Of a stretch of DNA of 64,000 nucleotides, positions 21,913 to 42,605 are shown piece by piece (position 1 is the stretch's first letter; the number at the start of each line of letters is the position of its first letter). The stretch comes from Candidatus Omnitrophota bacterium (GTDB taxonomy: Bacteria; Omnitrophota; Gorgyraeia; Tantalellales; Tantalellaceae). The stretch covers positions 64,835 to 128,834 of the forward strand of contig JBDRKO010000001.1 in NCBI GenBank assembly GCA_043813915.1. Reading direction: 5' to 3'. Below the pieces are notes generated by a model that did not search any database, was not told the DNA's origin, and saw nothing but the letters and a program-made list of their open reading frames with translations. Both the position numbers and the translations under genes were made by a program.

Positions 21913-21927
21913 GTATATCCGTGTTCG

Positions 21928-23646: not shown

Positions 23647-23649
23647 GGA

Positions 23650-24141: not shown

Positions 24142-24175
24142 ATTGAAAAGCTAAAAGATGACAAACATTCCATTG

Positions 24176-24958: not shown

Positions 24959-24975
24959 ATCGATTCATTCACGGA

Positions 24976-26037: not shown

Positions 26038-26115
26038 ATTGACCGTTCCTTTTTAAAAATAGATAGGATTATTTTCTTAATAGAAATAAACGGTGTTCTG
26101 TCGTGATTTACCAAG

Positions 26116-26144
26116 ATAGTATCAGATATCAAAATTAAAGTCAA
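26116..26144 (-). promoter_or_regulatory. putative sigma70 promoter for mreBCD-mrdA-rodA (TTGACT-N17-TACTAT)
   Basis: Found in the 196-bp AT-rich spacer upstream of mreB. Confidence 0.3.
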
Positions 26145-26233
26145 ACTTTTTTATTTTAATATGGGCTTTTTCTAAGACTGTCTCTTTGAAGTGTTTGCAG
26201 TTTTTAGTATATACTAAAAACTGTTTCCGCCCC

Positions 26234-27523
26234 CTAGCGCCCGCTGATCTTCATCAGATCCACGTAAAATCCGGGATAGGAGGTATTAACGCAGTCCACG
26301 TCCTCAACAGTCAGGCCTTTATCGGAAAAAAGTGACGCAACGGCCATTGTCATAGCTATCCGGTGATCTCCAAAACTCCTGACAACGGAAGGAACGATGC
26401 CCCTTTTCTTTCCCTCTATGACAATAACGTCTTTCTCTTCCGTTACGGCGATGCCGACGGCGCGGAGGTTCTCCTGCATGCTCTTTATACGGTCGCTCTC
26501 CTTGAATTTCAGCTCCGACGCGCCTTGTATCTCGGTCCGGCCTTCGGCCATACACGCCGCAAGCATTAGTATGGGAACTTCGTCTATCAATGATGGGATC
26601 TCCTCCGGGCGCACTCGGGTTCCCTTGAGCCCGGACGATACTATACGTATGTTCCCGCAGGGTTCAAGACCGTCCGTCATATTGAATACTTCTATCCGCG
26701 CGCCCATCCGCTTAAGTACCTCTAAAATACCCGTTCTCGTAGGGTTAAGCCCCACGTTCTTAAGCGTCACGTCGGATCCGTCCCTTAAAAGCGCGGCTAC
26801 TATAAAGAACGCCGCGCTGGATATGTCGCCCGGCACATCCACATCACGCGGGACCAACTCTCTCCCTCCTCCGATGGATACGGCCGGCCCTTTCCGCTCT
26901 ATATCCGCGGAAAAGAATTCAAGCATCCTTTCCGTATGGTCTCTGGAAAGAAATCTTTCCGTGACGGTGGTTCTTCCCTCGGCGTACATACCCGCTGAAA
27001 GTATACAGGACTTTACCTGAGCGCTGGCTATCGGCATGTCATATTGCATAGGAAGAAGAGGTCCTTTTTTGCCGTATATACAAAGAGGCGGATATCCTCC
27101 GCGTGAATCTATCTTCGCACCCATCCGGCCTAAAGGCCCCAAAATGCGTTCCATGGGCCGACCCGCGAGAGACGCGTCTCCTCTTAGACACACATCGAAA
27201 CCCTGTCCGGCCAATATCCCCGTGATTATTCTCATCGACGTCCCGGAATTCCCGAGGTAGAGGTCTTCTGAAGGCGCGCGCAACCCTTTCAGCCCTTTGC
27301 CCTTCACTATGACCGAAAGTTTTTCGCGCTTTATGTCTACCCCCATGGAAACGAACGCGTTGAGCGTAGACAGACAGTCCTCACCCGATAAGAAATTATT
27401 TATTTTGCATTCTCCCGACGCGATCGCTCCGAACATAACGGCCCTGTGAGATATGCTCTTATCGGGAGGAACAACGATCTCGCCTTTGAGGGCTTTACGA
27501 GACCCTCCTATTTTCCAATCCAT
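26234..27523 (-). CDS. aroA: 3-phosphoshikimate 1-carboxyvinyltransferase (EPSP synthase)
   Basis: PPDKSISHRAVMFGAIA, LGNSGTSMR motifs. Confidence 0.85.
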   Translation of the reverse strand: MDWKIGGSRKALKGEIVVPPDKSISHRAVMFGAIASGECKINNFLSGEDCLSTLNAFVSMGVDIKREKLSVIVKGKGLKGLRAPSEDLYLGNSGTSMRIITGILAGQGFDVCLRGDASLAGRPMERILGPLGRMGAKIDSRGGYPPLCIYGKKGPLLPMQYDMPIASAQVKSCILSAGMYAEGRTTVTERFLSRDHTERMLEFFSADIERKGPAVSIGGGRELVPRDVDVPGDISSAAFFIVAALLRDGSDVTLKNVGLNPTRTGILEVLKRMGARIEVFNMTDGLEPCGNIRIVSSGLKGTRVRPEEIPSLIDEVPILMLAACMAEGRTEIQGASELKFKESDRIKSMQENLRAVGIAVTEEKDVIVIEGKKRGIVPSVVRSFGDHRIAMTMAVASLFSDKGLTVEDVDCVNTSYPGFYVDLMKISGR

Positions 27524-27659
27524 TGAAGCTCCTTGGAGTTTGTTTTAGTATAGAATATAAGGTATATCGAGTAACGTTAAATGCTTCCCTTGCAAAGGGG
27601 ACACTTCCCTTCGGGAGGATGTCCCCATATCCTTGGCATGCGGAAGTTGGTTCTCCCAC

Positions 27660-28577
27660 TTAACCCTTAATTCTCTCTTCCTCGTCTCTTACCACCTTTT
27701 TCATGTCCTCGGGTACCGGCGCGGTAAACTCCATGGCCTTACCCGTGTCCGGATGAGAGAACCTCAGGCTCTCGGCATGCAATGCCTGCCGGGGCATACC
27801 TTGAGGGTATCCGTATTTCGCGTCACCAAGCAGCGGATGCCCGATATGCTTCATGTGCACTCTCAGCTGATGCGTCCTTCCCGTTTTAGGCTCTAACCTC
27901 AGGACCGTGAACTTCTCATACCGCTTGATCACATGATAAACGGTACAGGCTTCTTTACCCGATACCATGTCTATATCCATTTTTTTTCTGTCCATCACGC
28001 TTCTTGCCAGAGGAACGTCCACGATCCCGTTATCCAGCTCGACTTTTCCTTTGACTAAAGCGATATATGTCTTCTTCACCGTCCTGGCCAGGAACTGTTT
28101 AGAAATAGATCTTAAGGCGCGTTCTGTCTTGGCCGCGACTATTACCCCCGACGTATCTTTATCCAAACGATGAACTATACCCGGCCTCGTCTCATCTCCC
28201 GTATTTGCCATTTTTCCGCAATGAAAAAGAAGCGCGTTCACAAGCGTCCCTTTTTTGTTGCCTGAACCGGGGTGCACGACCATCCCCGCGGGTTTGTTCA
28301 ACACGATAAAACTTGCGTCCTCGTAAAGCACTTCCAAAGATATCTCTTCGGGCTCCGCGTAATGATCTTCCGCGGGAGAAAGCTCCATAACGACCCTATC
28401 CCCCGATGATACCGAATACCGGGGTTTGACCTTACTGTCATTGACGGTAACAAGACCTTTATCTATCATTTGTTTCGCATATGTACGGGAATACTCCGCT
28501 CCCAGCCGGACAGCCACGACCTTGTCTATGCGCTCATCGGCCATTTGCGGCTCAACTATGAACTCGATCTTTTCCAT
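27660..28577 (-). CDS. rluD: RluA-family 23S rRNA pseudouridine synthase (RluD-like)
   Basis: S4 domain N-terminus plus catalytic HRLDKDTSGVIV. Confidence 0.85.
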   Translation of the reverse strand: MEKIEFIVEPQMADERIDKVVAVRLGAEYSRTYAKQMIDKGLVTVNDSKVKPRYSVSSGDRVVMELSPAEDHYAEPEEISLEVLYEDASFIVLNKPAGMVVHPGSGNKKGTLVNALLFHCGKMANTGDETRPGIVHRLDKDTSGVIVAAKTERALRSISKQFLARTVKKTYIALVKGKVELDNGIVDVPLARSVMDRKKMDIDMVSGKEACTVYHVIKRYEKFTVLRLEPKTGRTHQLRVHMKHIGHPLLGDAKYGYPQGMPRQALHAESLRFSHPDTGKAMEFTAPVPEDMKKVVRDEEERIKG

Positions 28578-29322
28578 CTATATTTTCTGACGCTCCCTTT
28601 TTTAAAAAGTAATAACACCCCGCTCCGGCCGACAGTATAACAAGGCTCAATATCTGTGAAAGTTTCATCATGCCCAATACTCCCGGATTATCATCCCGCA
28701 TGAGATCCATAAAGAATCTAAGCGCCCCGTAGGACCTCAGGTATAAGGAAAATAAAAAACCCCGGAACCGCCTTTTTTTCCCGGCATACACTAGCAGCGC
28801 GAACAGACCGAATAAGAGCGCGCTTGAATAGAGCTGCGCAGGTATACGCTCCGTTCCATGTCCCGGAAAAAGCACCCTTATCCCGCTGTCCGACGGTATT
28901 CCGTAACAACAACCGTTAAAAAAACATCCGATACGGCCTATAGCCTGACCCAAAGCTATGTAAGGAGCGAAAACATCGGCCCCTTTCCAAAAAGGGATGT
29001 GCTTTGCCCTGGCGGCGAATAGTCCCCCGACAACAGCTCCCGCAAGCGCTCCCTGAAAGGCAAGTCCGCCTTCATGCAGCAGCAGTATCCTTCCCGGGAA
29101 CGAAAGATATTCTTTCCAGTTTATCGCGACAAAGAGCAGCCGGCCTCCCAGTACGCCGCTCAAAAGTATGATGACAACGCAATCCAGCATACTTCCCGGA
29201 TCCAGCCCTTCCTTTTTAGCGTCCTTCAAGATAAAAAGGACCGATATAACGAACGCAACGGCCAGGAACATACCGTATGTATACACCGTCAATGTCCCTA
29301 TTTGAAAAAGTATCCTATGCAT
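28552..29322 (-). CDS. lgt: prolipoprotein diacylglyceryl transferase
   Basis: Lgt signature membrane protein, 256 aa. Confidence 0.85.
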   Translation of the reverse strand: MHRILFQIGTLTVYTYGMFLAVAFVISVLFILKDAKKEGLDPGSMLDCVVIILLSGVLGGRLLFVAINWKEYLSFPGRILLLHEGGLAFQGALAGAVVGGLFAARAKHIPFWKGADVFAPYIALGQAIGRIGCFFNGCCYGIPSDSGIRVLFPGHGTERIPAQLYSSALLFGLFALLVYAGKKRRFRGFLFSLYLRSYGALRFFMDLMRDDNPGVLGMMKLSQILSLVILSAGAGCYYFLKKGASENIDGKDRVHS

Positions 29323-29337
29323 GCGTATCTCCGCCGT

Positions 29338-29853
29338 TCAACGGGCCGTCTTCTCCTCGTATTCGGGCCCCTTTTTCTCTCCTCTGACAATAGCTATCAT
29401 CAGAAGCACCGCTCCTATGCTGATAGCGCTGTCCGCGATATTAAAGACCGGCCAGACCCTGAAGTCGAAAAGATCTATTACATATCCCAAACGGACCCTG
29501 TCGATAAGATTTCCTACGGCTCCCCCGAGAATAAGGGCAAGCGCGGCGCGTTCCGTCGAGGTAAGTCTTTTTATTTTCGCCGTCAAAAGAAAGATAAGAA
29601 GTAGGATGGAAACGGCCGACACGGGAACGAATAGTCCCGGACTGCCGCTGAGCATGCCGAAAGCGGCGCCGGTATTCCGGACAAACGTTAAGTGGAACAT
29701 TCCTTTGATAAGAGGATAACTATCCCCCTGCCGCATGGTCTTTACGGCTAGATGTTTGGATACCTGATCCAGAACGCATATGGCCGACGCTGCCGTAAAA
29801 CAGCCGGTTATTTTTCTGAGGACCTTTCTTCCTTCTCCTGGCATTTGATACAA
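29338..29853 (-). CDS. lspA: lipoprotein signal peptidase II
   Basis: VRNTGAAFGM and NIADSAISIG motifs. Confidence 0.85.
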   Translation of the reverse strand: MYQMPGEGRKVLRKITGCFTAASAICVLDQVSKHLAVKTMRQGDSYPLIKGMFHLTFVRNTGAAFGMLSGSPGLFVPVSAVSILLLIFLLTAKIKRLTSTERAALALILGGAVGNLIDRVRLGYVIDLFDFRVWPVFNIADSAISIGAVLLMIAIVRGEKKGPEYEEKTAR

Positions 29854-30221
29854 TACTCCGCCTGTGGCATGGCTTTAAGACGCTGTTTTGATACGGCTCC
29901 GCCGCACGCGTCACATTTTCCGTAACTGCCGGCATCTATCCTTTTTATGGCCTCGTCGAGCGCGTACAGCCTTTCTCTTTCGGCTTCGGCGAGCTCCAAA
30001 GAGAACTCCCTGTCGTAAAGATCCGTTGCCATATCGGCCATATGAAAAGAATATCCCGACAGATCTCCCGAGGCGTCCTTTTGGGATTTGCTCAGGGATT
30101 CCCCTTTGATGCTGATCAGTTCCTGCAAGATCTGCGCCTTCTCTACTACCAGCCCCTTGCGTATATTTACAAGCTCCTGTTTTTTAAAGGGCTTTGAACC
30201 CGCGTTCTTTTTCTTATCCAT
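29808..30221 (-). CDS. DksA/TraR-family C4 zinc-finger protein
   Basis: C-terminal CDACGG...CIKCQ zinc finger with coiled-coil N-terminus; start taken at MDKKKNAG. Confidence 0.6.
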   Translation of the reverse strand: MDKKKNAGSKPFKKQELVNIRKGLVVEKAQILQELISIKGESLSKSQKDASGDLSGYSFHMADMATDLYDREFSLELAEAERERLYALDEAIKRIDAGSYGKCDACGGAVSKQRLKAMPQAEYCIKCQEKEERSSEK

Positions 30222-33015
30222 CTGCACCTCTCCTTTCTGACAGAACATTATAGCATCGTTCGCATAAATCATGAAAATCTTTATTCTCCCCGACGCTTAC
30301 ATCATAATTCCAACATCTCGAACATTTTTCTCCGTCGGCCTTAATGACCCCTATCTTAAGGCCCATATCCGGGATATCTGACATATTCTTATCGGCCGTG
30401 TCTTGTCCTCTGACCTGTGATACTTTGAATATTCCCGGGAGCAATCCGCTGTTCTCCTTGATGAACCCTTTCATTTCATCTTCTTCGGAAAAAAGCAGCA
30501 CCGCCGCCTCCAAAGAACTCCCGATAACACCTTTTTCCCTTTCTTTCTCCAGATGTTTCATCACCGCGTTCCGTATTTTCAGCATCCTCTCCCATTTCGC
30601 GTCCAGCACCGGGTCTTGATCTTCGGTCTGCGCGGGCCAGTCCGACATATGAACGCTCTCTTCTTTTCCTTTATATGTTATGTGTCCCCATGCTTCGTCA
30701 GCGGTAAACGGCATCATCGGCGCCATCAACCGGTCAAGGACATGGAATACCCGGAAGATCGCTGTTTGATGAGAACGTCTCTCGGCCGAATCAGGCTTCA
30801 ATATGTACAAAGTATCCTTAAGCACATCCATATAGAACGAGCTCACTTCATAAACGCAGAAATCGTAAACCGCCCTGTAGACCCTATGGAATTCCCACGT
30901 ATCATAATACGCCGTTACATCCTTTATAAGACCGGCCAATTGCGAAAGCATCCATCTGTCTATTTCCTTCATCCGCGCGCGTTCCAGAGAGTTCTTATCC
31001 GGATCGAAATCATACAGATTGCTCAAAAGGAACCTGAAAGTATTGCGCATTTTTCTATAACCGTCGGCAAGCCGTTCTAATATCTCTTCGGAAAGTTTTA
31101 TATCTACCTCGTAATCACTCGAAGCGACCCATAACCGTAAGATATCGGCCCCGTATTTACTGATTATCTCCTGCGGGCTTATGACATTGCCCGTTGATTT
31201 CGACATCTTTTTACCTTCACCGTCAACGACAAAACCGTGTGTCAGGACCTCGCGGTAAGGAGGTCTCCCCTCGGTCGCCATGGCCGTTATGAGCGACGAC
31301 TGGAACCATCCTCTGTGCTGGTCGGAACCTTCCAGATAAAGATCCGCGGGAAATGAAAGCTCCTCTCTGGCCCGGAGCACGGCTCTGTGGCTGACCCCCG
31401 AATCGAACCATACATCCAGGATATCATTTTCTCTGACAAATGTGTTCTTTCCGCAATGCCCGCATACTGTCCCTTCCGGGATAAGGTCCGCTATTCTCTT
31501 TTCGAACCACGCGTTAGAACCTTTTTCCCGGGTAAGCGCGGCCGCCTTTTTAATAACACCGGCATCCGTAAAGGTCTTCCCGCACGCCTCGCATTTAAAG
31601 GACGGAATAGGAACGCCCCAATACCTTTGCCGGGACAGGCACCAATCGGGCCGGCCTTCTACCATGGCCGCTATACGTTCTTCGCCCCGTTTCGGCGTCC
31701 ATTTCACATCTTCCCTGATAGCCCGGCTTATGTTCTCCCGGAGCCCTTCGTGGTCGACGTTCATGAACCACTGTTCGGTAGCGCGGAATATTATCGGGGA
31801 TCTACATCGCCAGCAATGGGGATAAGAATGACTGGTGTCTCCGGCATATATCATCGTGCCGCGTTCCTCCATAACCTTGATAATATCACCGTTCGCCTCT
31901 ATTACGTCGCGCCCCGCGAAAATACCAGCTTCCTTCTTGAATTTCCCTCTGTCATCGACCGGCATAATAACGGGAAGTCCGTATTTCTTACCGACAACAT
32001 GATCATCCTGTCCGTGTCCGGGAGCGATATGAACGCATCCGGTCCCGTCCTCCTTCGTGATATAATCCGCTTCTACGACAAGCGCCGCCCGGTCCAGGAA
32101 AGGATGTCTCAGTTCTTTATATTTCTCCGCGAGCGCCTTCCCCGAAAATTTTCCCGCTACCGAGTATTTTTCCGGACCCTTCTTATCCATAACGTTCTTT
32201 ACGAGGTCCTCGGCTATAACGAGAACCTCCGAGTCGGATTCGACCATGGAATAACTGAATTCGGAATGGACCGCTACCGCGGCATTCGCGAACAGCGTCC
32301 ACGGCGTGGTCGTCCATACGGCAAAATGCACCGGTTTCCCGTTCAGTTCGGCATCCGCCGAAAATCTTACGTATATCGACGGGGATACCTTGTCTTCATA
32401 CTCTACTTCGGCTTCCGCCAAAGCGGTCTCGCACTTACTGCACCAATTAACGGGTTTCAACCCCTTGTATATGTACCCTCTCTCATACAGGTCGGCCAAT
32501 GCGTCAAGAATACCGGCCTCGTACTCTTTGGTCAGAGTAAGATAAGGCGTGTCCCAATCCCCGAGTATCCCAAGCCGCTTGAACTCTTCGGCCTGTATCT
32601 TCACGAATTTCATCGCGTATGTGTAGGCTTTTTTCCTGAATTCCACCTGCCCGATATCGTCCTTTGTCATTTTCAGTTCTTTGAACAGCTGATGTTCGAC
32701 AGGCAGACCGTGACAGTCCCATCCGGGGACATACGGCGCGTAATACCCGCGCATTGTAAAATATTTTACGCACATATCCTTGAGTATTTTATTGAGCGCG
32801 TGCCCCAGATGGATATGTCCGTTGGCGTAAGGCGGACCGTCATGCAGAAGAAAACTTTTGCCCGAGTTCTTTCTTCTGCCGATAATTTCGCGGTAGAGTT
32901 CCTTCTCCTCCCATATCTTAAGCCTCTCCGGCTCCCTTTGAGGCAAATTGGCCTTCATTGAAAACCCGGTCTTAGGCAGGTTCAGCGTATCTTTATATCC
33001 GTTCTTCTCCGACAT
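30214..33015 (-). CDS. ileS: isoleucyl-tRNA synthetase
   Basis: HIGH (HLGHALN) and KMSKS motifs, 933 aa, C-terminal zinc motif. Confidence 0.95.
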   Translation of the reverse strand: MSEKNGYKDTLNLPKTGFSMKANLPQREPERLKIWEEKELYREIIGRRKNSGKSFLLHDGPPYANGHIHLGHALNKILKDMCVKYFTMRGYYAPYVPGWDCHGLPVEHQLFKELKMTKDDIGQVEFRKKAYTYAMKFVKIQAEEFKRLGILGDWDTPYLTLTKEYEAGILDALADLYERGYIYKGLKPVNWCSKCETALAEAEVEYEDKVSPSIYVRFSADAELNGKPVHFAVWTTTPWTLFANAAVAVHSEFSYSMVESDSEVLVIAEDLVKNVMDKKGPEKYSVAGKFSGKALAEKYKELRHPFLDRAALVVEADYITKEDGTGCVHIAPGHGQDDHVVGKKYGLPVIMPVDDRGKFKKEAGIFAGRDVIEANGDIIKVMEERGTMIYAGDTSHSYPHCWRCRSPIIFRATEQWFMNVDHEGLRENISRAIREDVKWTPKRGEERIAAMVEGRPDWCLSRQRYWGVPIPSFKCEACGKTFTDAGVIKKAAALTREKGSNAWFEKRIADLIPEGTVCGHCGKNTFVRENDILDVWFDSGVSHRAVLRAREELSFPADLYLEGSDQHRGWFQSSLITAMATEGRPPYREVLTHGFVVDGEGKKMSKSTGNVISPQEIISKYGADILRLWVASSDYEVDIKLSEEILERLADGYRKMRNTFRFLLSNLYDFDPDKNSLERARMKEIDRWMLSQLAGLIKDVTAYYDTWEFHRVYRAVYDFCVYEVSSFYMDVLKDTLYILKPDSAERRSHQTAIFRVFHVLDRLMAPMMPFTADEAWGHITYKGKEESVHMSDWPAQTEDQDPVLDAKWERMLKIRNAVMKHLEKEREKGVIGSSLEAAVLLFSEEDEMKGFIKENSGLLPGIFKVSQVRGQDTADKNMSDIPDMGLKIGVIKADGEKCSRCWNYDVSVGENKDFHDLCERCYNVLSERRGADG

Positions 33016-33037: not shown

Positions 33038-33901
33038 TTAAATAAATCCGTCTATGATGGGCCTAAGCCTGTCTAATGTCGTCTGAGGCACGTGCTCTTT
33101 AGGTGTAAAGATCGCGTTCTCCAGCGCCCTGCCGCATACGCACGAACGCTTCTGGGGCATATGCTTTATGGTTGCCGACAATATCTTCTTGGCGGTATCT
33201 ATGTTCTTTGCCACAGTCCTGATTATCATCTCTATAGTAACGCTTTCCGCGTCTTTTCCGGTCCTCCAGCAGTCATAGTCCGTTATCATCGCGATCGTAG
33301 CGTAACACATCCCCGCTTCCCTTGCCAAGCGCGCTTCCTGCATATTCGTCATACCGATAACGTCCATACCCCAACTGCGGTAAAGCGCCGATTCGGCTCT
33401 GGTAGAAAAAGCGGGACCCTCCATGTTCAGATAGATCCCTCTTTCATGCACTTTCGCACCCGTCCCGCGGCTGTTATCCAGTATGCTCTGCCGCAATTCA
33501 CCGCATACGGGATCGGCCATAGACACATGGGCCACTATACCGTCACCGAAAAAGGTCGTCGGCCTTCCCTGGTTGGTCCGGTCCACGAACTGGTCCACAA
33601 GAAGAACGTCCGATGGACGTATCTCTTCTTTGAGACTTCCCACCGCGGATACCGATATCACCCTGTCAACACCGATCACTTTTAACGCGTAGATATTGGC
33701 GCGAAAATTTATCTCCGAAGGCGATATGCTGTGTGCTCTGCCGTGCCTGGGCAGGAACACGACCCCTTTATCCCCTAATTCCCCGAAAACGAGTTCATCG
33801 GACGGCTCCCCGAAAGGAGTGCTGACCTTTTTTTTCTCCAAGATCTTCATCCCCTTCATCTCATAAAGCGCGCTGCCGCCGATAATACCTATCTTATTCA
33901 T
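33038..33901 (-). CDS. mtnP: 5'-methylthioadenosine/purine nucleoside phosphorylase
   Basis: PNP/MTAP family (IGIIGGS..., FLPRHGRAH); start at MNKIGIIGGS. Confidence 0.8.
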   Translation of the reverse strand: MNKIGIIGGSALYEMKGMKILEKKKVSTPFGEPSDELVFGELGDKGVVFLPRHGRAHSISPSEINFRANIYALKVIGVDRVISVSAVGSLKEEIRPSDVLLVDQFVDRTNQGRPTTFFGDGIVAHVSMADPVCGELRQSILDNSRGTGAKVHERGIYLNMEGPAFSTRAESALYRSWGMDVIGMTNMQEARLAREAGMCYATIAMITDYDCWRTGKDAESVTIEMIIRTVAKNIDTAKKILSATIKHMPQKRSCVCGRALENAIFTPKEHVPQTTLDRLRPIIDGFI

Positions 33902-34007
33902 ATTTACACCTAATGTTACGCGATCCAAAAACCATATTAGACCATAGACCGTAGACAACAGCCTGCATATTTTAAATATCTTTTAAAGAAAGCGCCTAAG
34001 CTATGGT

Positions 34008-34229
34008 CTATCGCCCAACTATCTCTATTAACTTTTTCCGTGATGTCTTTCCTTTAACTATGATCACGTCCTTCTTTCTCACTCCGTACTCTTCCGCCAA
34101 AAGCGCTATAACAGCTTTGTTCGCCTTTCCTTTATCCGGGGCAGCATTGACATACACCCTCGTCTTCCCTTCCTTAATTACGATCTCTTCCCTGGAAGCT
34201 CCTGTCGTAACTCTTATCTCCAGCTTCAT
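34008..34229 (-). CDS. yggU: DUF167/YggU-family protein
   Basis: 73 aa, KGKANKAVIALLAE motif. Confidence 0.7.
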   Translation of the reverse strand: MKLEIRVTTGASREEIVIKEGKTRVYVNAAPDKGKANKAVIALLAEEYGVRKKDVIIVKGKTSRKKLIEIVGR

Positions 34230-34525
34230 CAGCCTAACCTTGCGGCCAAGTGGTAAAGGACATTGACTATAAAATTTTTTGCCACGCTGATCAGCAGGAA
34301 CGCTACGATAGGCGAAAAATCCATCATACCCGCCTGCAAAGGCAGTCTCTTCAGCGGCGCCAATATCGGATCGGTCACCCTATAGACAATGCTTACCATC
34401 TCGCTGTATGGATCCGCTCCCACCCAGGAAAGTATTATGCGTATGACCAGAAGAAAGTATACTATGTTAAAAATAAGAGAGATCAGAAGAGCAAAGCTTT
34501 TTATCATTTCGCCCAATATGAACAT
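34229..34525 (-). CDS. yggT: YggT/Ycf19-family membrane protein
   Basis: RIILSWVGADPY...VTDPILAPLKRL signature. Confidence 0.7.
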   Translation of the reverse strand: MFILGEMIKSFALLISLIFNIVYFLLVIRIILSWVGADPYSEMVSIVYRVTDPILAPLKRLPLQAGMMDFSPIVAFLLISVAKNFIVNVLYHLAARLG

Positions 34526-35320
34526 CTATTTCCCTCCCGAAAGTTCTTCCGAACGTTCTTTCGCTTTCAGAACAGCTTCTTTAACGGCGTCACGTATCCC
34601 GCGGTCACTGAATACCTTGAGCGCGGCTTCCGTGGTCCCTCCTTTCGAAGCTACCTTATCTATCATCACCTGGGGATCCGCGCCCGAGACAGCGAGCAGC
34701 TCGCCCGCTCCCGTCAGTGTTTCAGTGACCAGTTTCTTGACGGTTTCCGCATTCATACCCATATTTTTTCCGGCACTCTCCATAGCCTCGGCCAGATAAA
34801 AAAGATACGCGGGTCCCGAGCCGGAGAGCGCCGTAACAGCGTCCATTTCGTCCTCATTGACCTCAACGACAGTTCCTACGCTCTCGAATATGGTCATAAT
34901 AGCGTTTTTGTCCTGGACTTTGTCATTGAACGATATTCCCGTAACGCTCCTTTTGATGAACGCCGCCATGTTGGGCATAGCACGGGCCACCGGCACTTCT
35001 TTACCGATCTTTTCTGTTATAGAACCGGCTGTTACTCCGGCCATCACCGATACTATTGTCTGTCCCGAAAGATAAGACCGGATCTCCTCCAAAAGGCCAC
35101 CGGCATCCTGAGGTTTGACCGCAAGCAGCAGCACATCGCTCTTATCCGTGATCTCCCTGATACTCATCGCTTCGGCGCCTGTTTCCCGGGACAGAACTTG
35201 GGCTTTCCGGGGATCCTTATCGTTAAGCAGGACCTGTTCCTTGCGTAGGGTCCCCTTGTCGATCAACCCGCGTATTATCGCTCCGCCCATATTCCCGCAC
35301 CCGAATACTCCCAGCTTCAT
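34526..35320 (-). CDS. proC: pyrroline-5-carboxylate reductase
   Basis: MKLGVFGCGNMGGAI Rossmann N-terminus and ProC C-terminal domain; upstream extension of the ORF rejected. Confidence 0.8.
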   Translation of the reverse strand: MKLGVFGCGNMGGAIIRGLIDKGTLRKEQVLLNDKDPRKAQVLSRETGAEAMSIREITDKSDVLLLAVKPQDAGGLLEEIRSYLSGQTIVSVMAGVTAGSITEKIGKEVPVARAMPNMAAFIKRSVTGISFNDKVQDKNAIMTIFESVGTVVEVNEDEMDAVTALSGSGPAYLFYLAEAMESAGKNMGMNAETVKKLVTETLTGAGELLAVSGADPQVMIDKVASKGGTTEAALKVFSDRGIRDAVKEAVLKAKERSEELSGGK

Positions 35321-35561
35321 CACGGACCGCCTTGTTCTTTTTGAGTAAGCCCTGCTTAAACACCTATATATGCAGAAGTAATGGTTAAAAGTATCATAAT
35401 CTTCCTCTGATGTCAAATAGGATTATCCCGGGCCTTTCAAATCCCCGGGGACAGCAGAGGTCCGTTCGGATCTGACGGACCGAAAACGCGCTTAATGCGT
35501 TTAATAACCATTAGAAGGATCGTAACAAGGTGCAGTTTGAAGATGGGCTTGAGAACTTGGC

Positions 35562-35790
35562 AATATCCGTCAATTTACCGATACCCCGGGCTAAAGACCG
35601 GAGCTTGCTTGCCCTGAGCGAAGCCGAAGGGCTTGCCCTGAGCGAAGCCGAAGGGCTTGCCCTGCCTGCCCCGCCTGTCCCGAGCAAAGCCGAGGGGAGT
35701 TTGTCGAGGGGAGCGAACCCGAAGGGTTCCCTATCGACCCGGCACGGCAGTGTCCCGAGCAAAGCGAGGGGAGCACCGGCGAATGGGTGA
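35562..35790. repeat. intergenic repeat element copy 1, abutting ftsA stop, with internal 25-bp tandem expansion
   Basis: TGTCAATTTACCGATACCCCGGGCTAAAGACCGGAGCTTGCTTGCCCTGAGCGAAGCCGAAGGG ... GGCGAATGGGTGAA; about 2.5 tandem GCTTGCCCTGAGCGAAGCCGAAGGG units plus degenerate units; inverted copy at 53135-53262. Confidence 0.55.
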
Positions 35791-35792
35791 AC

Positions 35793-36860
35793 TTAGAAAT
35801 AACTGTCAATAAAATTGATGATCTTATCCGCGGCACCTTTAAAAAGATCCGTGTTCCTCCTATCCTTTAGGCGTTCGGAGTATAAGTAGTCCAGCATACC
35901 CAGACTGCCTACGTACCCAACCCTATCCTGCGGCAATTTCTCGAAAGGACGGACCGAACAGTTCCCGATCTTCACGGGAAGCTTGAACACATTTTCCGCC
36001 GCGTCTATAAATTCTTCCGTCATCGCGTCCTCAAAAAAGACAACGATCTTACGGACTTTATCCCATCCCTCTAAACTTTTGGTATCCGAATAAAGCGTCC
36101 GGAGCGCCTCTTCCTGTACACCCGCCTCTCCTGACATCATCTCCTCGGTTCCGCCGTGCGATACGCGTACTCCGCACAATATGCCGTCGTTGAACACGAG
36201 CGTTTCCTGAAGGTCCCTGCGGATAGCCAGAAAAATAGCTCCTTTCTGCATATCCTCTTCCGAAAGTATCCTATAAGCCGAAGCCAGTCCCGAAAAAATG
36301 AACCCCGCGGGAACGGATCCGGAATCCGCTATGACCCTTTGCATGTTCCTTATGACGGAAGAATTTACCGTTACGACGTTCACGTGGGCATCCAGCTTGA
36401 TCCCTTCAAGGTTGAATGGATCATGAATACCGTCTTCCCCGTCAACCGCGAACCCGGCCACTATGCGGTGGATGGGCTCCTTCTCTATAGGCATCTTTAC
36501 GATAGAGGCCATTTTGATACATCGCTTAATGTCAAAACGCGATATCTCCCTGCCGTACTTAGACACGAGTACGGTACCTATCCCTTTCGTGAGACCCAAG
36601 GAGGAAGAGCTTATACCCGCGTATACATCTCTTATCCCCTTGGTATCCAGCCGTCCTATGACCTCTCCGATCGTATCGGTCGCGGCTCCGGAGTCAGAGA
36701 CAGCTCCCCTGAGGAACCCTCTGGAAGGGACCCTGGAGAATTTCTCTATGGCATAATCACCGCTCCGGTTCCATCTGACCGAGACGGCCGTGACATTCGT
36801 GCTGCCGATGTTCACCGTCGCAAAATATTTACCCATCGAACGTCCTTGTTTTGTTACCAT
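35793..36860 (-). CDS. ftsA: cell division protein FtsA
   Basis: Actin-like fold, 355 aa, immediately after ftsQ. Confidence 0.85.
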   Translation of the reverse strand: MVTKQGRSMGKYFATVNIGSTNVTAVSVRWNRSGDYAIEKFSRVPSRGFLRGAVSDSGAATDTIGEVIGRLDTKGIRDVYAGISSSSLGLTKGIGTVLVSKYGREISRFDIKRCIKMASIVKMPIEKEPIHRIVAGFAVDGEDGIHDPFNLEGIKLDAHVNVVTVNSSVIRNMQRVIADSGSVPAGFIFSGLASAYRILSEEDMQKGAIFLAIRRDLQETLVFNDGILCGVRVSHGGTEEMMSGEAGVQEEALRTLYSDTKSLEGWDKVRKIVVFFEDAMTEEFIDAAENVFKLPVKIGNCSVRPFEKLPQDRVGYVGSLGMLDYLYSERLKDRRNTDLFKGAADKIINFIDSYF

Positions 36861-37642
36861 TATCTGGGGGATAATACGGCATCATCGAACCTGAGATCGA
36901 TATAGTTCATGTCGACTATGTCCATATCCGGATCCCGAATGATCTCCCTCAGTTTTTCAAGTTTAGAACGGAAATTGTCCGCGCCCATTTTGATCAAAAC
37001 GCCTTTCACGGAAAGAGTCGTGTTCCTGCTGTCCGAGACATCAATACTGTCTACCTCCGTCCTCGTTCCGCTGAAGATCTCGTCAACGGCTTTCAGCAGA
37101 ACAAGCGCCTTGTCCAAATTCCTATTGCTGATAATGCTTCCTTTAGCCGGCGACTTGAAAATAAAATTCACTCCTATGATCTTGGTAAGGTTCTTCGGCT
37201 CGTTCCCTATGTCCAGGACAAAACCTTCTCTGTCTATGATCACCCCTCCCAGAGAATCTATCACCGCTATAGGTTCTCTGGATATTATCTCCACATAAAG
37301 CGTATCGGGAAGTATCCTCCGGACTTCGACCCTTTTAAAATGCCCGAAATCATTCCGTATCAGGCCTTCCGTCTGTTTAAGGTCGATGCTGAAAATGTTC
37401 CGCCCCAAATACCGTTCCCGTATCTTCCCCTCGTCCTCATTGAACGAGTAGCCTTTTATATTATTGACGGTCACTTTTCTTATCTCAAAAGTCCCGCTGC
37501 TCAGAACCGTCCTTACGGCAGCCGATCCCATGCCTATCAGGAGAGCCGCGCCGATAACTAAGAACAGCACGCCCCTGTTCCTCCGGACCTTTTCAAAAAG
37601 ACCCGATGCCATTCCGTTTTTTTTGCTTTTTTTTCTCGCCAC
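36860..37642 (-). CDS. ftsQ: cell division protein FtsQ (POTRA)
   Basis: N-terminal TM then POTRA/FtsQ domain, between ddl and ftsA. Confidence 0.75.
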   Translation of the reverse strand: MARKKSKKNGMASGLFEKVRRNRGVLFLVIGAALLIGMGSAAVRTVLSSGTFEIRKVTVNNIKGYSFNEDEGKIRERYLGRNIFSIDLKQTEGLIRNDFGHFKRVEVRRILPDTLYVEIISREPIAVIDSLGGVIIDREGFVLDIGNEPKNLTKIIGVNFIFKSPAKGSIISNRNLDKALVLLKAVDEIFSGTRTEVDSIDVSDSRNTTLSVKGVLIKMGADNFRSKLEKLREIIRDPDMDIVDMNYIDLRFDDAVLSPR

Positions 37643-37691: not shown

Positions 37692-38624
37692 TCATCCCGC
37701 GCTAAGAGCCGTAAGAAGCATTCTAACACATAGTTCGGAAAAATCTATACCCTCTTCCCTGGCCGCCATCGGAAGAAGACTTCTTTCGGTAAGCCCCGGT
37801 ATGGTATTGACCTCCAGAACGTACATATCTCCGTTCGCCGAAGCTATCATGTCCACTCTGGAGAACCCGGAACATCCGAGCACTTTGTGCGCCTTAAGCC
37901 CCGCATCCTGAGCCATCCCGTATGCTTCCTCGGTCAGCCCGGCGGGCACTATGTATTTTGTCCGGCTCGAGGTATATTTGGAATGAAAATCATACGTGCC
38001 GCATTCCGGTTCTATTTCTACGACGGGCAGGGCCTTTTCGTCAAGTATCCCTACCGTTATCTCTCGGCCCGATATATACCGTTCCGCGATAACGTCCGGC
38101 CCGAATTTCAACGCTTCGCGCACGGCCTCCTTTAACCCCTCCTCCGAGGGAACAAAGGACAGCCCTATGCTAGACCCCTCTTTCGCGGGCTTTATTACGC
38201 ACGGAAAACCGATCTCGCCGGAAACGATGTGTTCTTCTGACCGTACGATCTCATATTCGGGGATCTTTATCCCGGCGCTATGAAGTCTTTTTTTTGTCTC
38301 TATTTTATCGAAAGCTATGCGGGATGCTTCGGGACCCGACCCGCTATAAGGGATACCCTTCCCCTCCAGTATGGACTGGACGGTCCCGTCCTCCCCGTAT
38401 TTCCCGTGCATCGCTATGAAAGCTACGGTAACACCCGAAATTTCCTCATCCCTTATAGAACCGTTCTTTTCTACCTCTATCAATACCGTGTTGAGGCCAA
38501 GCTCTTGGAACGCGCCGAACACCGCGCGGGCGCTTTTAAGACTTATGTCCCTTTCGCTGGAAGGCCCTCCCGCCAGAACACCTATCCTGTGGCCTCGAAG
38601 CGCTTCCATCCCGTTATTTTTCAT
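37692..38624 (-). CDS. ddl: D-alanine--D-alanine ligase
   Basis: ATP-grasp fold, GVLAGGPSSERDISL N-terminus. Confidence 0.9.
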   Translation of the reverse strand: MKNNGMEALRGHRIGVLAGGPSSERDISLKSARAVFGAFQELGLNTVLIEVEKNGSIRDEEISGVTVAFIAMHGKYGEDGTVQSILEGKGIPYSGSGPEASRIAFDKIETKKRLHSAGIKIPEYEIVRSEEHIVSGEIGFPCVIKPAKEGSSIGLSFVPSEEGLKEAVREALKFGPDVIAERYISGREITVGILDEKALPVVEIEPECGTYDFHSKYTSSRTKYIVPAGLTEEAYGMAQDAGLKAHKVLGCSGFSRVDMIASANGDMYVLEVNTIPGLTERSLLPMAAREEGIDFSELCVRMLLTALSAG

Positions 38625-39549
38625 ATTCCGCGTCCTTCATTATCATGATCTCGGGGTAAAGCTCTACCGAGAACCTATTCTTTACTTCATTCTCTATCTT
38701 TTTCATGAGCTTTTTCACGTCAGAGGCCGTGGCGCTCCCTTCGTTGACGATGAAATTCGCGTGTTTTTCGGAGACCACCGCTCCGCCCGACCTCGAGCCT
38801 TTCATCCCGCTCAGTTCTATAAGTTCTCCGGCGGACCTATTATCGCCTTGAGGGTTCTTGAATATACATCCGAGCGTTCTCTCTAGTAAAGGCTGCTTTT
38901 CCATCTTTTCCGAAAAATACGCTTTCAGTCTCTCATCCGTTTCCTTTCTGGAACATCTCTCAAATTCGAATTCCGCTTTAAGGACAATATCCCCTTTTTC
39001 AAGGCCCGAACATCTATATCCGAATCCCATCTCTTTTTGCTCCAGCCATCTCTCTCCGCGCGTTTCGCTCCACACCAACACTTTTCTGACCATACTGCCG
39101 ATATCTCTTTTATATCCGGCGTTCGTTCTTACGGCACCGCCTACCGTGGCGGGGATACCTACCAGACCTTCAGCCCCACCCAGGCCTTCCGCACGGCACG
39201 CTGCTATCATGTATTCAAGCCTCACCCCCGCTCCCAGGACGAGGTGCTGTCCCCGGGCCGATATTTCAGAGAACACGCCTTCTCTTATGATCACCACGAC
39301 CGCATTGAACTCGTTGTCCGGGAAAAGGACATTACTGCCTCTGCCCAAGATCTCCGATCTTATGTTTCCGCGCCTAAGTATATCCGAAAGCTGTATCAGT
39401 TCTTCGGCGCAGGAAGGCAGGTATACCGCCGCGGCTTTTCCTCCTACTCTCATTGTACTGTAAAGCGACATGGGCCGGCCGAACAGCACTTTGCCGCCGT
39501 ATTTTCTGCTCAGTCTTTCTAATTGTCCGAAAAATGGTCTTTCTGTCAT
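38614..39549 (-). CDS. murB: UDP-N-acetylenolpyruvoylglucosamine reductase
   Basis: FAD-binding MurB domain, 311 aa. Confidence 0.85.
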   Translation of the reverse strand: MTERPFFGQLERLSRKYGGKVLFGRPMSLYSTMRVGGKAAAVYLPSCAEELIQLSDILRRGNIRSEILGRGSNVLFPDNEFNAVVVIIREGVFSEISARGQHLVLGAGVRLEYMIAACRAEGLGGAEGLVGIPATVGGAVRTNAGYKRDIGSMVRKVLVWSETRGERWLEQKEMGFGYRCSGLEKGDIVLKAEFEFERCSRKETDERLKAYFSEKMEKQPLLERTLGCIFKNPQGDNRSAGELIELSGMKGSRSGGAVVSEKHANFIVNEGSATASDVKKLMKKIENEVKNRFSVELYPEIMIMKDAEYEK

Positions 39550-39553
39550 TGTT

Positions 39554-40924
39554 CTACGCCTGCCCTCCGATGCTAGCGACTATTCCCGGACCGATCTCCC
39601 TGATATCCCCGGCACCGAGAATGAGGACCATATCCCCCGGCGAGGTAAGTCCCGGCATCGCTCCGGGAATATCCTCCTTACTCAGCATCTCCAGCACGGA
39701 GAACCTTCCCCTATCCATCCTGTCCAATATATCCTTGACCGATATTTTATTTAAAAGGCCTTCCTCGTCCGCGGAATATATATCCGTTAGTATCACATTG
39801 TCCGCCTCGTTAAAACAGCGGGTGAAATCCTCGGCTAGGTCAGCTGTTCTTGAATAGCGGTGAGGCTGAAAAACAACTGTCACTTTTCCCGGCGCGGCCT
39901 GTTTCGCGGCCCTTATGACAGCCTTGATCTCCGTCGGGTGATGCGCGTAATCTTCTATCACCCGGACACCCTTTACCTTGCCCACTTCTTCGAATCTTCT
40001 CTTTACTCCCTTAAAGGATCCCGCTCCCGAAACAATATCTTCCATACCCGCCCCCGCTTCCAGACAAACAGCCGACGCGTTCAAAAGGTTCATAAGATTA
40101 TGTCTTCCCAAAAGCGGGCAGATCACTCTTCCCATATTGCTTCCTTTCGCGATAAGATCGAACTCGATACTTTTGTCGAAGACCTCTCCGGAGCAGGTAA
40201 TATCGCATCCCTTTTTTATCCCGAACGAGACTTTCCTTACTTTTTCCGCGGCGGGCAGTATGTTCTTAATGGCCTCATCCTCTCCGCTGAAAACGAACGC
40301 CCCTCCTTCTGAAATATTGTTCAAAAACGATCTATACGCGTTCAAGAGGTCGTCCCATCCCTTGTAATTTTCCATATGTTCTCTTTCTATATTCGTAACG
40401 GACGCTATGTGTGACCGTATGTTCCGAAAATATCCGTCACTTTCATCGACCTCCGCAACGACCATATCCCCGGCACCTTTTTTCGCGTTACCTCCGATGG
40501 ATCCTATCTCCCCTCCGAGAATAACGGTAGGGTCCCATCCGGACGTCTCGAGTATATGAGCGATAAGCGCCGTTGTCGTGGTCTTGCCGTGAGTGCCTGT
40601 AACTGTCAGGGCGGACCCTGCTTCTTCCAGCATCCTTCCGAGAAATTCACTTCTCGGCAGGACGGTTATCCCTTTGTCCAAAGCCGCCATCAGCTCGGGG
40701 TTATCCTTTTTTATCGAAGACGAGACTATTACCATCTCAGTCCCTTCCGGGATATGAGAAGAGGCGTGCCCCTCGTACACCTTGGCGCCGCGTTCGCACA
40801 ATTCTTCTATCAGCGGGTTCGACCTTATATCCGAACCCGAGACCTTATCTCCGCCGGCTATACTTATCTTAGCCAGCGCGCTCATACCTATACCGCCTAC
40901 GCCTATAAAATGTATATGTTTCAC
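39554..40924 (-). CDS. murC: UDP-N-acetylmuramate--L-alanine ligase
   Basis: IHFIGVGGIGMSALA, Mur ligase domains. Confidence 0.9.
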   Translation of the reverse strand: MKHIHFIGVGGIGMSALAKISIAGGDKVSGSDIRSNPLIEELCERGAKVYEGHASSHIPEGTEMVIVSSSIKKDNPELMAALDKGITVLPRSEFLGRMLEEAGSALTVTGTHGKTTTTALIAHILETSGWDPTVILGGEIGSIGGNAKKGAGDMVVAEVDESDGYFRNIRSHIASVTNIEREHMENYKGWDDLLNAYRSFLNNISEGGAFVFSGEDEAIKNILPAAEKVRKVSFGIKKGCDITCSGEVFDKSIEFDLIAKGSNMGRVICPLLGRHNLMNLLNASAVCLEAGAGMEDIVSGAGSFKGVKRRFEEVGKVKGVRVIEDYAHHPTEIKAVIRAAKQAAPGKVTVVFQPHRYSRTADLAEDFTRCFNEADNVILTDIYSADEEGLLNKISVKDILDRMDRGRFSVLEMLSKEDIPGAMPGLTSPGDMVLILGAGDIREIGPGIVASIGGQA

Positions 40925-42051
40925 TTATTCCTCATTTTTCTTTTTTCCCGTTTTTTTTCAGCCTCGCCGATGACCGCGTCGGCCAGGTCAGGACCCGCTG
41001 ACGGTCTGGCCAGTCTCGCGGCGGAAAGGGCCATAACGCGCAGCTTTTCCTTGTCCCTCAAAAGTCCCAATATGTCCTCACCGAGGGACTCTCCGGTGAT
41101 ATCGGGCTCTTCTCTGTATACCGCGGCACCGGCCCCGAAAAAAACAGCGGCGTTCGATCTTTGATTGTTCTTCGGATGCGGATACGGGACCAGGATCATG
41201 GGTTTACCGTAATAAGCCAGTTCGAACACCGCGGCGGCCCCCGAACGCGAGATCGCCAGATCGCTCACAGAGTAAGCCCGGTCGATCCTTTCCATAAAAG
41301 AGAAAACTTTTCCCTCGACATCGTTGGAACGATAGAACTCCTTTATCCTGTCATGATCTTTTTTCCCCGTCAAGTGAAGGAACTGCACGCCTTCTCCGGC
41401 CGCGCGTTTAACGCAGAGGGCCGCTTCAGACGCGGCTTTATTCAGGAAGGAAGATCCCTGACTGCCCCCCATAACGAGGACCGTGAACTTACAGGGGTCC
41501 ATCCCCAGCTCCGCGGCGGCGGATCCTCTGTCATTTATGAGCATATCCACCCGCAGGGGGTTGCCCGTACATCGTACGCGTCCCGGTCGTCCTTTGAAAT
41601 ATTCTTTTGACCCTTCGAAACTCACGGCAATAACATCGGCGATACGTCCCAATATCCTGTTTGCCCGGCCGGGAGATAAATTCTGCTCGTGTATTATGAC
41701 GGGTATGCCCAGGACCTTCCCCGCGACAGCGGCCGCCCCGGAAGAATATCCGCCGAAACCTACCACCGCGTCAGGACGTTGCCGAAGAATAATAAAAAAT
41801 GATACCGCTATATCCAACATGAATTTCATCGCGAACACCAGTATACGCAGGGGATAAAACCCCAAAGGCATGGGGTTTATAGAAAGAAAAAAACTGGGGA
41901 ACCCGTATTCTTTCAGTATATTCTTATCCAGATCGCGTCTGCTGGAGACCAGAAGGATATCTTCCACTCCTTTTTTTCTTAGTTCCGAGGCCAGGACCAC
42001 CGCCGGGAAGATATGTCCGCCTGAACCTCCCGCCGCGATAATGATCTTCAT
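40921..42051 (-). CDS. murG: undecaprenyl-PP-MurNAc-pentapeptide GlcNAc transferase
   Basis: MKIIIAAGGSGGHIFPA, GT28 family. Confidence 0.9.
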   Translation of the reverse strand: MKIIIAAGGSGGHIFPAVVLASELRKKGVEDILLVSSRRDLDKNILKEYGFPSFFLSINPMPLGFYPLRILVFAMKFMLDIAVSFFIILRQRPDAVVGFGGYSSGAAAVAGKVLGIPVIIHEQNLSPGRANRILGRIADVIAVSFEGSKEYFKGRPGRVRCTGNPLRVDMLINDRGSAAAELGMDPCKFTVLVMGGSQGSSFLNKAASEAALCVKRAAGEGVQFLHLTGKKDHDRIKEFYRSNDVEGKVFSFMERIDRAYSVSDLAISRSGAAAVFELAYYGKPMILVPYPHPKNNQRSNAAVFFGAGAAVYREEPDITGESLGEDILGLLRDKEKLRVMALSAARLARPSAGPDLADAVIGEAEKKREKRKMRNK

Positions 42052-42605
42052 TAATATATCCTTGTGTATAAAAGTCTAAAGGTCTAAAGGTCTTTTAAGT
42101 AAATTGCCAGAAACCTGTTACCAGTTGCCAGACCAAAACAGTTTAAAAGTCTAAATGTCGAAAGTCCCAATAGACCATTGACTGTTGACCATGGACTATT
42201 GACCATTATGCGAATCCATCAATACTGACCTATTTGTCGCTAAAGACAATGGTCAATCGTCAATTGTCCATAGTCCAATATCGTCTCCGTCCTCTGACTT
42301 CTGTCTTCTGACTTCTAGCTCTCCGGAATACCCGCTCTTCTCAGTCCGCTTTAGCGGACTGGATGTCCAGTATCTTCCGAGCTCTTCCCCTCCATCCAAC
42401 GTATAGTCCTGGTCACGACAATAACTTCGTTACCTGATCGGGTGGGTATTCTAGGCGAGTTCCGCAACCCCGCTGCTTTGTTTTGCAAAGCAAAACAACG
42501 GGGTGAGGACTGTCTGAGCCCAGAATACCCGCCGATCGGGTAACCATTTTCACATCAGTCAATACAACCCGACAAACTCTACAAACGCAACAAACCCCAC
42601 AAACC
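42052..42605. repeat. 550-bp repeat-dense spacer between ftsW and murG with extended hairpin (about 42432-42542)
   Basis: GTCTAAAGGTCTAAAGGTC, TTGACCAT/TATTGACCAT repeats, TCTGACTTCTGTCTTCTGACTTC module, CAGTCCGCTTTAGCGGACTG hairpin, long imperfect inverted repeat GATCGGGTGGGTATTCTAGG...CCCAGAATACCCGCCGATCGGG around the internal hairpin CCCCGCTGCTTTGTTTTGCAAAGCAAAACAACGGGG, inverted copy of the TTTGTAGAGTTTGTCGGGTTGTATTGACTGATG module. Confidence 0.55.

Follow-up and report, generated by a model that had tools for sequence, protein, structure and literature searches.

Can a bacterium that keeps a complete division and cell wall (dcw) gene cluster divide without FtsZ, and what becomes of its FtsA if it does? 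The question is raised by a 64,000-nucleotide stretch of contig JBDRKO010000001.1 (assembly GCA_043813915.1, positions 64,835 to 128,834; hereafter the window, 64 kb in all) from a Candidatus Omnitrophota bacterium, in which the dcw cluster ends with ftsA and the position that canonically holds ftsZ is taken by a short intergenic spacer. We consider it likely, with good confidence, that this arrangement reflects an ancient, Omnitrophota-wide loss of ftsZ, accompanied by a remodelled FtsA and by FtsZ-independent division. The assignment of the organism agrees with the FtsA and Ddl proteins of the window, which match at 100% identity the NCBI entries of a metagenome-assembled genome (MAG) labelled Candidatus Omnitrophota bacterium and whose near homologues come, every one, from Omnitrophota MAGs. 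The end of the cluster and the genes that follow it, in the direction of transcription, are:

36860-37642, minus strand: ftsQ (260 aa; Pfam FtsQ_DivIB_C and POTRA_1)
35793-36860, minus strand: ftsA, the last dcw gene (355-aa open reading frame, ORF; likely start at M9, giving 35793-36836 and 347 aa)
35321-35792 (472 bp): spacer at the canonical ftsZ position, with no family-matching ORF and no FtsZ similarity
34526-35320, minus strand: proC (pyrroline-5-carboxylate reductase, 264 aa; Pfam P5CR_dimer and F420_oxidored; start checked by translation)
34229-34525, minus strand: yggT/ylmG (98 aa; Pfam YGGT)
34008-34229, minus strand: yggU (DUF167, 73 aa; Pfam DUF167)
33038-33958, minus strand: PNP/MTAP-family phosphorylase (Pfam PNP_UDP_1)
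30214-33015, minus strand: ileS (Pfam)
20818-30272: after ileS, a dksA/ylyA-like zinc-finger gene, lspA, lgt, rluD, murA and mreB-mreC-mreD-pbp2-rodA (Pfam)

The initial annotation of this locus, made from the sequence alone, had stated that no ftsZ follows ftsA and that yggS, sepF and divIVA are missing from the downstream ylm region, and homology searches bear out both statements. Searches with E. coli and B. subtilis FtsZ (tblastn) gave no match in the window (best E 0.62), no Tubulin/FtsZ, SepF, DivIVA or YggS domain was found with Pfam in the approximately 65 window ORFs scanned, and tblastn at E values up to 10 detected no ftsZ remnant or pseudogene in the window spacer or in the corresponding spacers of relatives. 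The gene order proposed in the same annotation (ftsA followed by a repeat element, proC, yggT, yggU, mtnP and ileS) also stands, with the fifth of these genes placed in the PNP_UDP_1 family and the specific name mtnP unproven. In B. subtilis and other Firmicutes we take the order to be ftsA-ftsZ-ylmD-ylmE(yggS)-sepF-ylmG(yggT)-ylmH-divIVA-ileS-ylyA-lspA-rluD. Like that region, the window carries yggT, ileS, a DksA/YlyA-like gene, lspA and rluD in the same order downstream of the dcw cluster, as identified with Pfam; unlike it, the window is devoid of ftsZ, ylmD, sepF, ylmH and divIVA, and proC, yggU, the PNP-family gene and lgt are interleaved among the shared genes.

A comparison with the region downstream of ftsA in relatives, suggested in the initial annotation, shows that the slot is likewise without ftsZ across the clade. 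When an FtsA alignment was used to scan one genome per GTDB species, 34 Omnitrophota loci (516 kb) were recovered, together with one Bacilli locus (L045; loci are designated by L numbers), and the region searched around each relative's locus comprised 10-kb flanks. No ftsZ was detected by tblastn within 10 kb in the 34 Omnitrophota species loci, whereas the Bacilli control, in the same scan, has ftsZ directly after ftsA (E 2.6e-109); the control was also considered as an outgroup for the ylm region and set aside, its downstream genes being uninformative. Four contigs end at ftsA and are uninformative for the slot. In all loci of this set that reach the ftsA end, the dcw cluster terminates in an FtsA of approximately 350 aa, 33-54% identical to that of the window, and proC lies less than 700 bp from ftsA in 21 loci. 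The ftsA-proC spacer measures 16-657 bp, the shortest examples (16 bp in L042 and 40 bp in L041) occurring in the loci with the most divergent FtsAs. Relatives looked up individually, among them Ca. Aadella gelida, GCA_014728045.1, Ca. Tantalella remota and a 527-kb JGI contig (FtsA 43-50% and Ddl 54-58% identical), present the same picture of ftsQ, an FtsA of approximately 350 aa and no ftsZ, with the usual order proC-yggT-yggU-PNP-ileS-dksA-lspA-lgt-rluD-murA-mreB after ftsA.

One divergent locus retains an additional gene in the slot. L063 (Logan contig SRR27676567), identified by profile search and counted as a relative by its very divergent 344-aa FtsA, reads ftsQ-ftsA-100 bp-yggS-proC-yggT-yggU-PNP-ileS-..., with yggS (Ala_racemase_N, 219 aa) at 10044-10703, between the short ftsA and proC. 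Judged by its gene order, L063, in which ftsZ alone has disappeared from the slot, appears to be the intermediate expected from excision of ftsZ out of an ancestral ftsA-ftsZ-yggS-proC-yggT-...-ileS-ylyA-lspA-rluD arrangement, an order similar to that of B. subtilis, and its yggS upholds the earlier reading of the segment from proC and yggT to ileS as a remnant of the ftsZ-ylm-ileS neighbourhood.

The absence of ftsZ from Omnitrophota is already published, if not widely absorbed, and its genome-wide extent is taken here from that literature. In Supplementary Note 1 of Seymour et al. (2023, Nat Microbiol, PMC10066038), covering 421 genomes from 276 species, Omnitrophota are described as lacking ftsZ, with the exception of one archaeal-type contaminant; ftsY and L30 are likewise reported as lacking, and OLB16, an 'Omnitrophica' genome with ftsZ, is placed outside the Omnitrophota. 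Pende et al. (2021, Nat Commun, PMC8178401) count Omnitrophica, along with Planctomycetes and Chlamydiae, among the groups without FtsZ, and in their table Omnitrophica have FtsA and lack SepF. The window matches the FtsZ-less Omnitrophota of both surveys, having FtsA and neither ftsZ nor sepF. The parts of the two papers drawn on here contain no locus picture, that is, no account of the clean removal of ftsZ from its slot, of a yggS-keeping intermediate or of a remodelled FtsA. Rivas-Marin et al. (2016) left the question of Omnitrophota ftsZ open, and a 2025 review names planctomycetes as the only free-living FtsZ-less bacteria (PMC12673574).

If FtsZ is gone, is the FtsA that remains still a canonical FtsA? 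In the window and in the related loci its gene follows ftsQ and closes the dcw cluster at the 3' side, and the protein is short, at 347-355 aa in the window against approximately 420 aa for canonical FtsA, a feature on which the initial annotation is silent. The fold of the window FtsA is actin-like, and its domain 1 carries the 1C (SHS2) insertion, as seen with Pfam, which found SHS2_FTSA as its sole domain (E 5.5e-14), and with Foldseek on an AlphaFold2 model with a predicted local distance difference test (pLDDT) of 86.8. Compared with PDB structures, a 16-member family profile aligns to E. coli/Vibrio FtsA (7Q6D, 7Q6F, 7Q6G) over residues 8-237 and resumes at approximately 309, with profile positions 3-234 corresponding to E. 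coli FtsA 8-237 and positions 245-320 to 309-385; a MAFFT alignment with E. coli and three other canonical FtsAs displays the same two gaps. E. coli FtsA residues ~238-308 are left without a counterpart, only some 25-35 residues remaining there in Omnitrophota FtsA. Because the skipped residues match the boundaries of subdomain 2B, which we take to span roughly residues 230-300, we identify the missing part as 2B. In a Thermotoga maritima co-crystal the FtsZ C-terminal peptide lies on 2B (PMC5256927), and deletion of 2B abolishes the FtsA-FtsZ interaction, while 1C recruits FtsQ/FtsN (PMC4281207).

The nucleotide-binding motifs of this FtsA are also altered. The phosphate-2 motif DIGGGT is replaced by xIxxDxTE in the family (LAIRRDLQE in the window) and the adenosine motif TGGxA by TGE/TGD/FFED (VFFEDA in the window), the aspartate of the phosphate-1 motif (D/ExG) is not conserved in the family (VNIGST in the window), and the nucleotide-motif glycines are missing from the family consensus. 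Degeneracy of this kind suggests that ATP binding has probably been lost in Omnitrophota FtsA. The C-terminal helix is kept: ...FIDRYF aligns to the E. coli membrane-targeting sequence ...SWLRKEF, and AlphaFold2 predicts a helix at 339-354 with low pLDDT, which together point to a predicted amphipathic membrane-targeting helix. The family further possesses an invariant segment of its own, CxxxPxExLPxxR (also written CxxRPFExLPxxR). In a library of 1.84 billion proteins, approximately 35 clusters of 343-361 aa match the family profile end to end, whereas canonical FtsAs of 400-440 aa match it only at positions 1-240 and over a second stretch, the break falling at 2B; the short FtsA is accordingly set apart as a discrete family. 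In sum, Omnitrophota FtsA resembles canonical FtsA (E. coli 7Q6D; T. maritima 1E4F/4A2A; S. aureus 3WQT) in its actin-like fold, 1C/SHS2 domain, post-ftsQ position and C-terminal amphipathic helix, and differs from it in lacking approximately 60-70 residues of 2B, in not conserving DIGGGT and TGGxA, and in its extra conserved segment. We found no description of a 2B-less FtsA in the searchable literature. The suggestion in the initial annotation that the organism divides without FtsZ, like Planctomycetes and Chlamydiae, is in agreement with Seymour et al. (2023) and Pende et al. (2021) and fits the loss of 2B.

The alternative that fares best against this evidence is that a highly divergent FtsZ or other tubulin-superfamily protein, encoded elsewhere and missed by BLAST and Pfam, has taken over. 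Divergent FtsZ-like families exist in other bacteria, several window ORFs have no Pfam match, and the window is a minor part of the genome. Yet nothing FtsZ-like was found in the window or in the 516 kb of related loci, and a divergent FtsZ would need another membrane tether, since the FtsA of these bacteria is without the canonical docking site; we regard this alternative as improbable. Still less likely, in our estimation, is that the short 'FtsA' is a PilM-like or other actin-fold paralogue and that the true FtsA/FtsZ pair lies elsewhere. Such a reading could appeal to SHS2_FTSA being the only domain to pass Pfam and to the PilM structures that are also significant in Foldseek, but the top Foldseek structures are FtsA (7q6d, 7q6f and 4a2a, TMq 0.71-0.78), clearly above PilM (best 7q6d, TMq 0.76, vs 0.57). 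The gene of the short FtsA moreover always closes the dcw cluster, immediately following ftsQ, the C-terminal helix of the protein lines up with the membrane-targeting sequence of E. coli FtsA, and the window encodes a separate, bona fide PilM at 9454-10470.

The spacer at the ftsZ position contains a dispersed repeat element, and the question arises whether this element had a part in the loss. Its copies and internal repeats in the window are:

35560-35792, minus strand: dispersed repeat element, ~233 bp, forming the ftsA-proximal part of the spacer
35607-35664: perfect 24-nt tandem GCTTGCCCTGAGCGAAGCCGAAGG x2.4 within the repeat element (Tandem Repeats Finder score 116, 100% matches)
~53131-53250, plus strand: second repeat copy, shorter and inverted, upstream of mraZ (by alignment, 68 nt 90% complementary to 35564-35631)

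The element consists of GC-rich modules of 24-45 nt followed by a conserved 3' core of approximately 70 nt ending in ...GGTATCGGTAAATTGACGG, and contains four copies of a degenerate 21-nt motif, CCYTYSGSTTYGCTCRGGRCA, against 0 expected. Further contigs from the same JGI sample (L054 and L061) carry copies as well, and in a different assembly (L052) the module array of the mraZ-upstream copy is longer, which means either that its length differs between members of the species or that it is difficult to assemble. The element is absent from the ftsA-proC spacers of relatives, with which the window spacer has only a proC-adjacent block in common. No Rfam family matches the spacer or repeat at the gathering threshold, the E-value mode giving only osmY (E 0.6), and RNA folding gave no more stability than shuffled sequences do (z -0.5 for the repeat, and +0.2 in a second comparison). 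Like repetitive extragenic palindromic (REP) or miniature inverted-repeat transposable element (MITE)-like dispersed repeats, the window element is short, GC-rich, multi-copy and intergenic, with a copy number that varies between strains; unlike them, it has no identified terminal inverted repeats, fold signal or Rfam family.

As a separate observation, a 28-nt core of the repeat, CCTTCGGCTTCGCTCAGGGCAAGCAAGC, is identical in unrelated, mostly high-GC metagenome contigs (L046-L062; for instance L050, L057, L058, L060 and L062). In those contigs it forms the loop between contig-variable inverted repeats (ggcagga...tcctgcc, ggcggga...tcccgcc), and in two of them it apparently lies inside putative coding sequence. 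By its sequence context the 28-nt core looks like a widely dispersed hairpin repeat.

According to a second suggestion of the initial annotation, ftsZ has been relocated, possibly through the repeat, and would be intact elsewhere in the genome, with the repeat marking the site of excision or recombination. The repeat is dispersed over at least four loci in the same population and could in principle mediate rearrangement, and the part of the genome examined amounts to 64 kb. The same ftsZ-less junction, however, occurs without the repeat in 34 other species (FtsA 33-54% identical), and no genuine ftsZ was found in the 421 Omnitrophota genomes of Seymour et al. (2023, PMC10066038). The FtsZ-binding subdomain has in addition been lost family-wide, which would be unexpected were FtsZ still used. 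Confined to this species and missing from relatives, the repeat was not what removed ftsZ; with an ftsZ-less slot in 34 species that lack it and a module array that varies between assemblies of one species, the repeat is young and the loss is old. We consequently abandon the proposed role of the repeat, and judge a relocated, intact ftsZ to be very improbable. That the gap is an assembly or binning artefact, from a contig mis-joined at the repeat, is next to negligible: one same-species Logan contig does stop 123 bp into the repeat and the mraZ-upstream copy does differ between assemblies, but the junction from the 3' end of ftsA through the repeat to the 5' end of proC is identical in L047, an independent JGI contig, and more than 20 independent assemblies of other species have proC directly after ftsA with no repeat.

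In some relatives the slot has been occupied in a different manner. Approximately five loci have a very large ORF that starts immediately after ftsA (lengths from at least 726 to at least 3240 aa, the lower bounds denoting ORFs cut by a contig end), and in L024 a 2714-aa ORF lies between ftsA and proC-yggT. The ftsA 3' junction seems to be a favoured insertion site for giant genes, the post-ftsA giant ORFs being located as follows:

L024, 11524-19668
L035, 11331 to contig end
L030, 9904 to contig end
L022, 6208 to contig end
L033, 7755 to contig end
L064, 7038 to contig end

Loci from MAGs labelled 'uncultured Planctomycetia bacterium' (L015, L018, L021, L023, L027, L030, L035, L039, L041 and L043) possess the Omnitrophota-type short FtsA and the same synteny, and that label is likely a placeholder or a mislabel.

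The proC-proximal part of the spacer, unlike the repeat, is conserved across species. An invariant block, ATTGACAT-N10-AtTaTGaTAmTTTTAACCaTT, lies upstream of proC in six species (the window, L002, L004, L010, L013 and L020) and reads TTGACA-N14-TG-N-TACTTT. The pattern TTGACA-N14-TGnTAnnnT has five matches in the window, all on the gene strand, vs 0.59 expected, and at least four of the five are placed just upstream of a gene (L21, pilM, mreB and proC) by their positions on the gene map:

35388-35416, minus strand: extended -10 promoter-like site, TTGACA-N14-TGATACTTT then TAACCATT, conserved across species; the TGATACTTT box is at 35388-35396
2021-2049, 10542-10570, 26116-26144 and 54612-54640, minus strand: the other four matches to the pattern

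A simple scan of the spacer for sigma-70 promoters and terminators gave no match, and the block is visible only by comparative alignment because its -10 element is of the extended TGn type. From this conserved motif we infer a separate promoter for the proC-yggT operon, which would then be transcribed apart from the dcw cluster.

Upstream of ftsQ, the dcw cluster is complete and collinear from mraZ onwards, entirely on the minus strand. The initial annotation had called it complete and canonical, and Pfam scans support each of the genes it named, the ORF in the ftsL position being without a Pfam match. The remaining genes of the cluster, each identified with Pfam except where stated, are:

52512-52964, minus strand: mraZ
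51188-52069, minus strand: rsmH
50829-51188, minus strand: 119-aa ORF in the ftsL position (no Pfam match)
49103-50794, minus strand: ftsI
47634-~49100, minus strand: murE
46225-47601, minus strand: murF
45164-46252, minus strand: mraY
43688-45160, minus strand: murD
42606-43691, minus strand: ftsW
40921-42051, minus strand: murG
39554-40924, minus strand: murC
38614-39549, minus strand: murB
37692-38624, minus strand: ddl

The same species is also represented on short contigs in GCA_018817765.1, JGI 3300014656, SRR10568895 and ERZ27247128. Within the cluster, the longest murD ORF encodes 490 aa vs 428-460 aa in relatives, a tandem repeat of 7/14/28 nt (45056-45129) falls in its first ~40 codons (45040-45160), and residue 43 is where the N domain of MurD begins; the true start is probably downstream of that of the longest ORF, and the tandem repeat would then be intergenic. 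Short tandem-repeat arrays with units of 7-17 nt (TCTGACT, GTTTGTAGA, ATTCGTG, GTGATTC, CATTACA, CTACGAA) fill intergenic regions at 42052-42605 (murG/ftsW), 20530-20813, 45056-45129 and 57272-57527. The murG-ftsW array makes up an unusual 554-bp spacer within the dcw cluster, and 20563-20615 and 42553-42605 are complementary at 87%.

Elsewhere in the window, a large type IV pilus/type II secretion system-like cluster (3572-18639) encodes three N_methyl pilins, a secretin, PilO, PilM, PilC, a stand-alone MshEN protein, a PilT-like ATPase and two paralogues of PilB that share 73% identity between 13596-13746 and 15340-15490. This cluster is accompanied by a GGDEF protein, and a PilZ protein is encoded at 54637-55005. 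The 540-aa ORF at 16840-18462 on the plus strand, the longest in its stretch, was rejected as spurious antisense to the real genes on the minus strand:

16687-17748, minus strand: pilT-like ATPase
17779-18639, minus strand: HAMP-GGDEF protein

A 217-aa protein (60600-61253, minus strand) begins with a cytoplasmic tail, is predicted to cross the membrane once, and continues through an acidic linker into a SPOR domain at its C-terminus; the predicted FtsN/DedD-like topology makes it a candidate partner of the FtsA 1C domain.

How might the present state have come about? Under the explanation favoured here, an ancestral order ...ftsQ-ftsA-ftsZ-yggS-proC-yggT-yggU-PNP-ileS-dksA/ylyA-lspA-lgt-rluD... 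would have lost ftsZ by clean removal from its slot, the gap being the scar of an old loss common to the phylum; yggS would have been lost later in most lineages, with sepF and divIVA absent. The leftover ftsA-proC spacer, short and fast-evolving, would later have taken in repeats or giant genes. FtsA, for its part, would have been kept after the loss of FtsZ and remodelled, losing almost all of 2B and the glycine-rich ATP loops while retaining its 1C (SHS2) domain and the amphipathic membrane helix at its C-terminus. As the most likely mechanism, we infer that membrane-bound FtsA could serve as a nucleotide-independent scaffold for the FtsQ/FtsL/FtsW/FtsI septal peptidoglycan machinery; MreBCD-PBP2-RodA, encoded 8 kb downstream, may assist by analogy with MreB in Chlamydiae. 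The locus recalls Planctomycetota and Chlamydiota, of the Planctomycetes-Verrucomicrobia-Chlamydiae (PVC) superphylum, in having lost ftsZ while keeping many dcw and peptidoglycan genes. Those phyla, however, have lost ftsA too, and the dcw cluster of Planctomycetota is fragmented, whereas the window has a complete, collinear cluster and keeps a modified FtsA. We tentatively propose an FtsA-based, FtsZ-free divisome, in which a 2B-less, nucleotide-independent, helix-anchored FtsA would take the lead in organising FtsQ/L/W/I at the membrane, perhaps together with MreB and an FtsN-like SPOR protein. Such a divisome would be an evolutionary intermediate between Z-ring division and the division of Planctomycetota and Chlamydiota, which do without both FtsZ and FtsA; this more specific proposal is plausible but somewhat short of probable.

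Several points weigh against the reading of an ancient ftsZ loss with FtsZ-independent division. The genome-wide absence of ftsZ rests on surveys of incomplete MAGs and single-amplified genomes, the window covers 64 kb of a 133-kb contig, and sequence methods may miss a highly divergent tubulin-fold protein. Sequence and a predicted structure underlie both the scaffold role proposed for FtsA and its probable loss of ATP binding. We know of no imaging of Omnitrophota division. Finally, Henriques et al. (2025) place Omnitrophota among phyla with 'highly conserved' dcw genes and do not single out ftsZ.

FtsZ-less division is a long-standing question in PVC cell biology, and the locus described here shows the FtsZ-less state in a collinear, peptidoglycan-competent dcw cluster from which ftsZ is cleanly gone and in which FtsA lacks the FtsZ-binding subdomain. 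What the present analysis adds is the locus-level picture, with its clean excision, yggS-keeping intermediate and later-filled slot, together with an FtsA devoid of 2B and of the ATP motifs. Omnitrophota FtsA thereby offers a natural variant for separating the FtsZ-dependent from the FtsZ-independent functions of FtsA, and the locus provides a concrete candidate, amenable to testing, for a stage midway through loss of the Z-ring.

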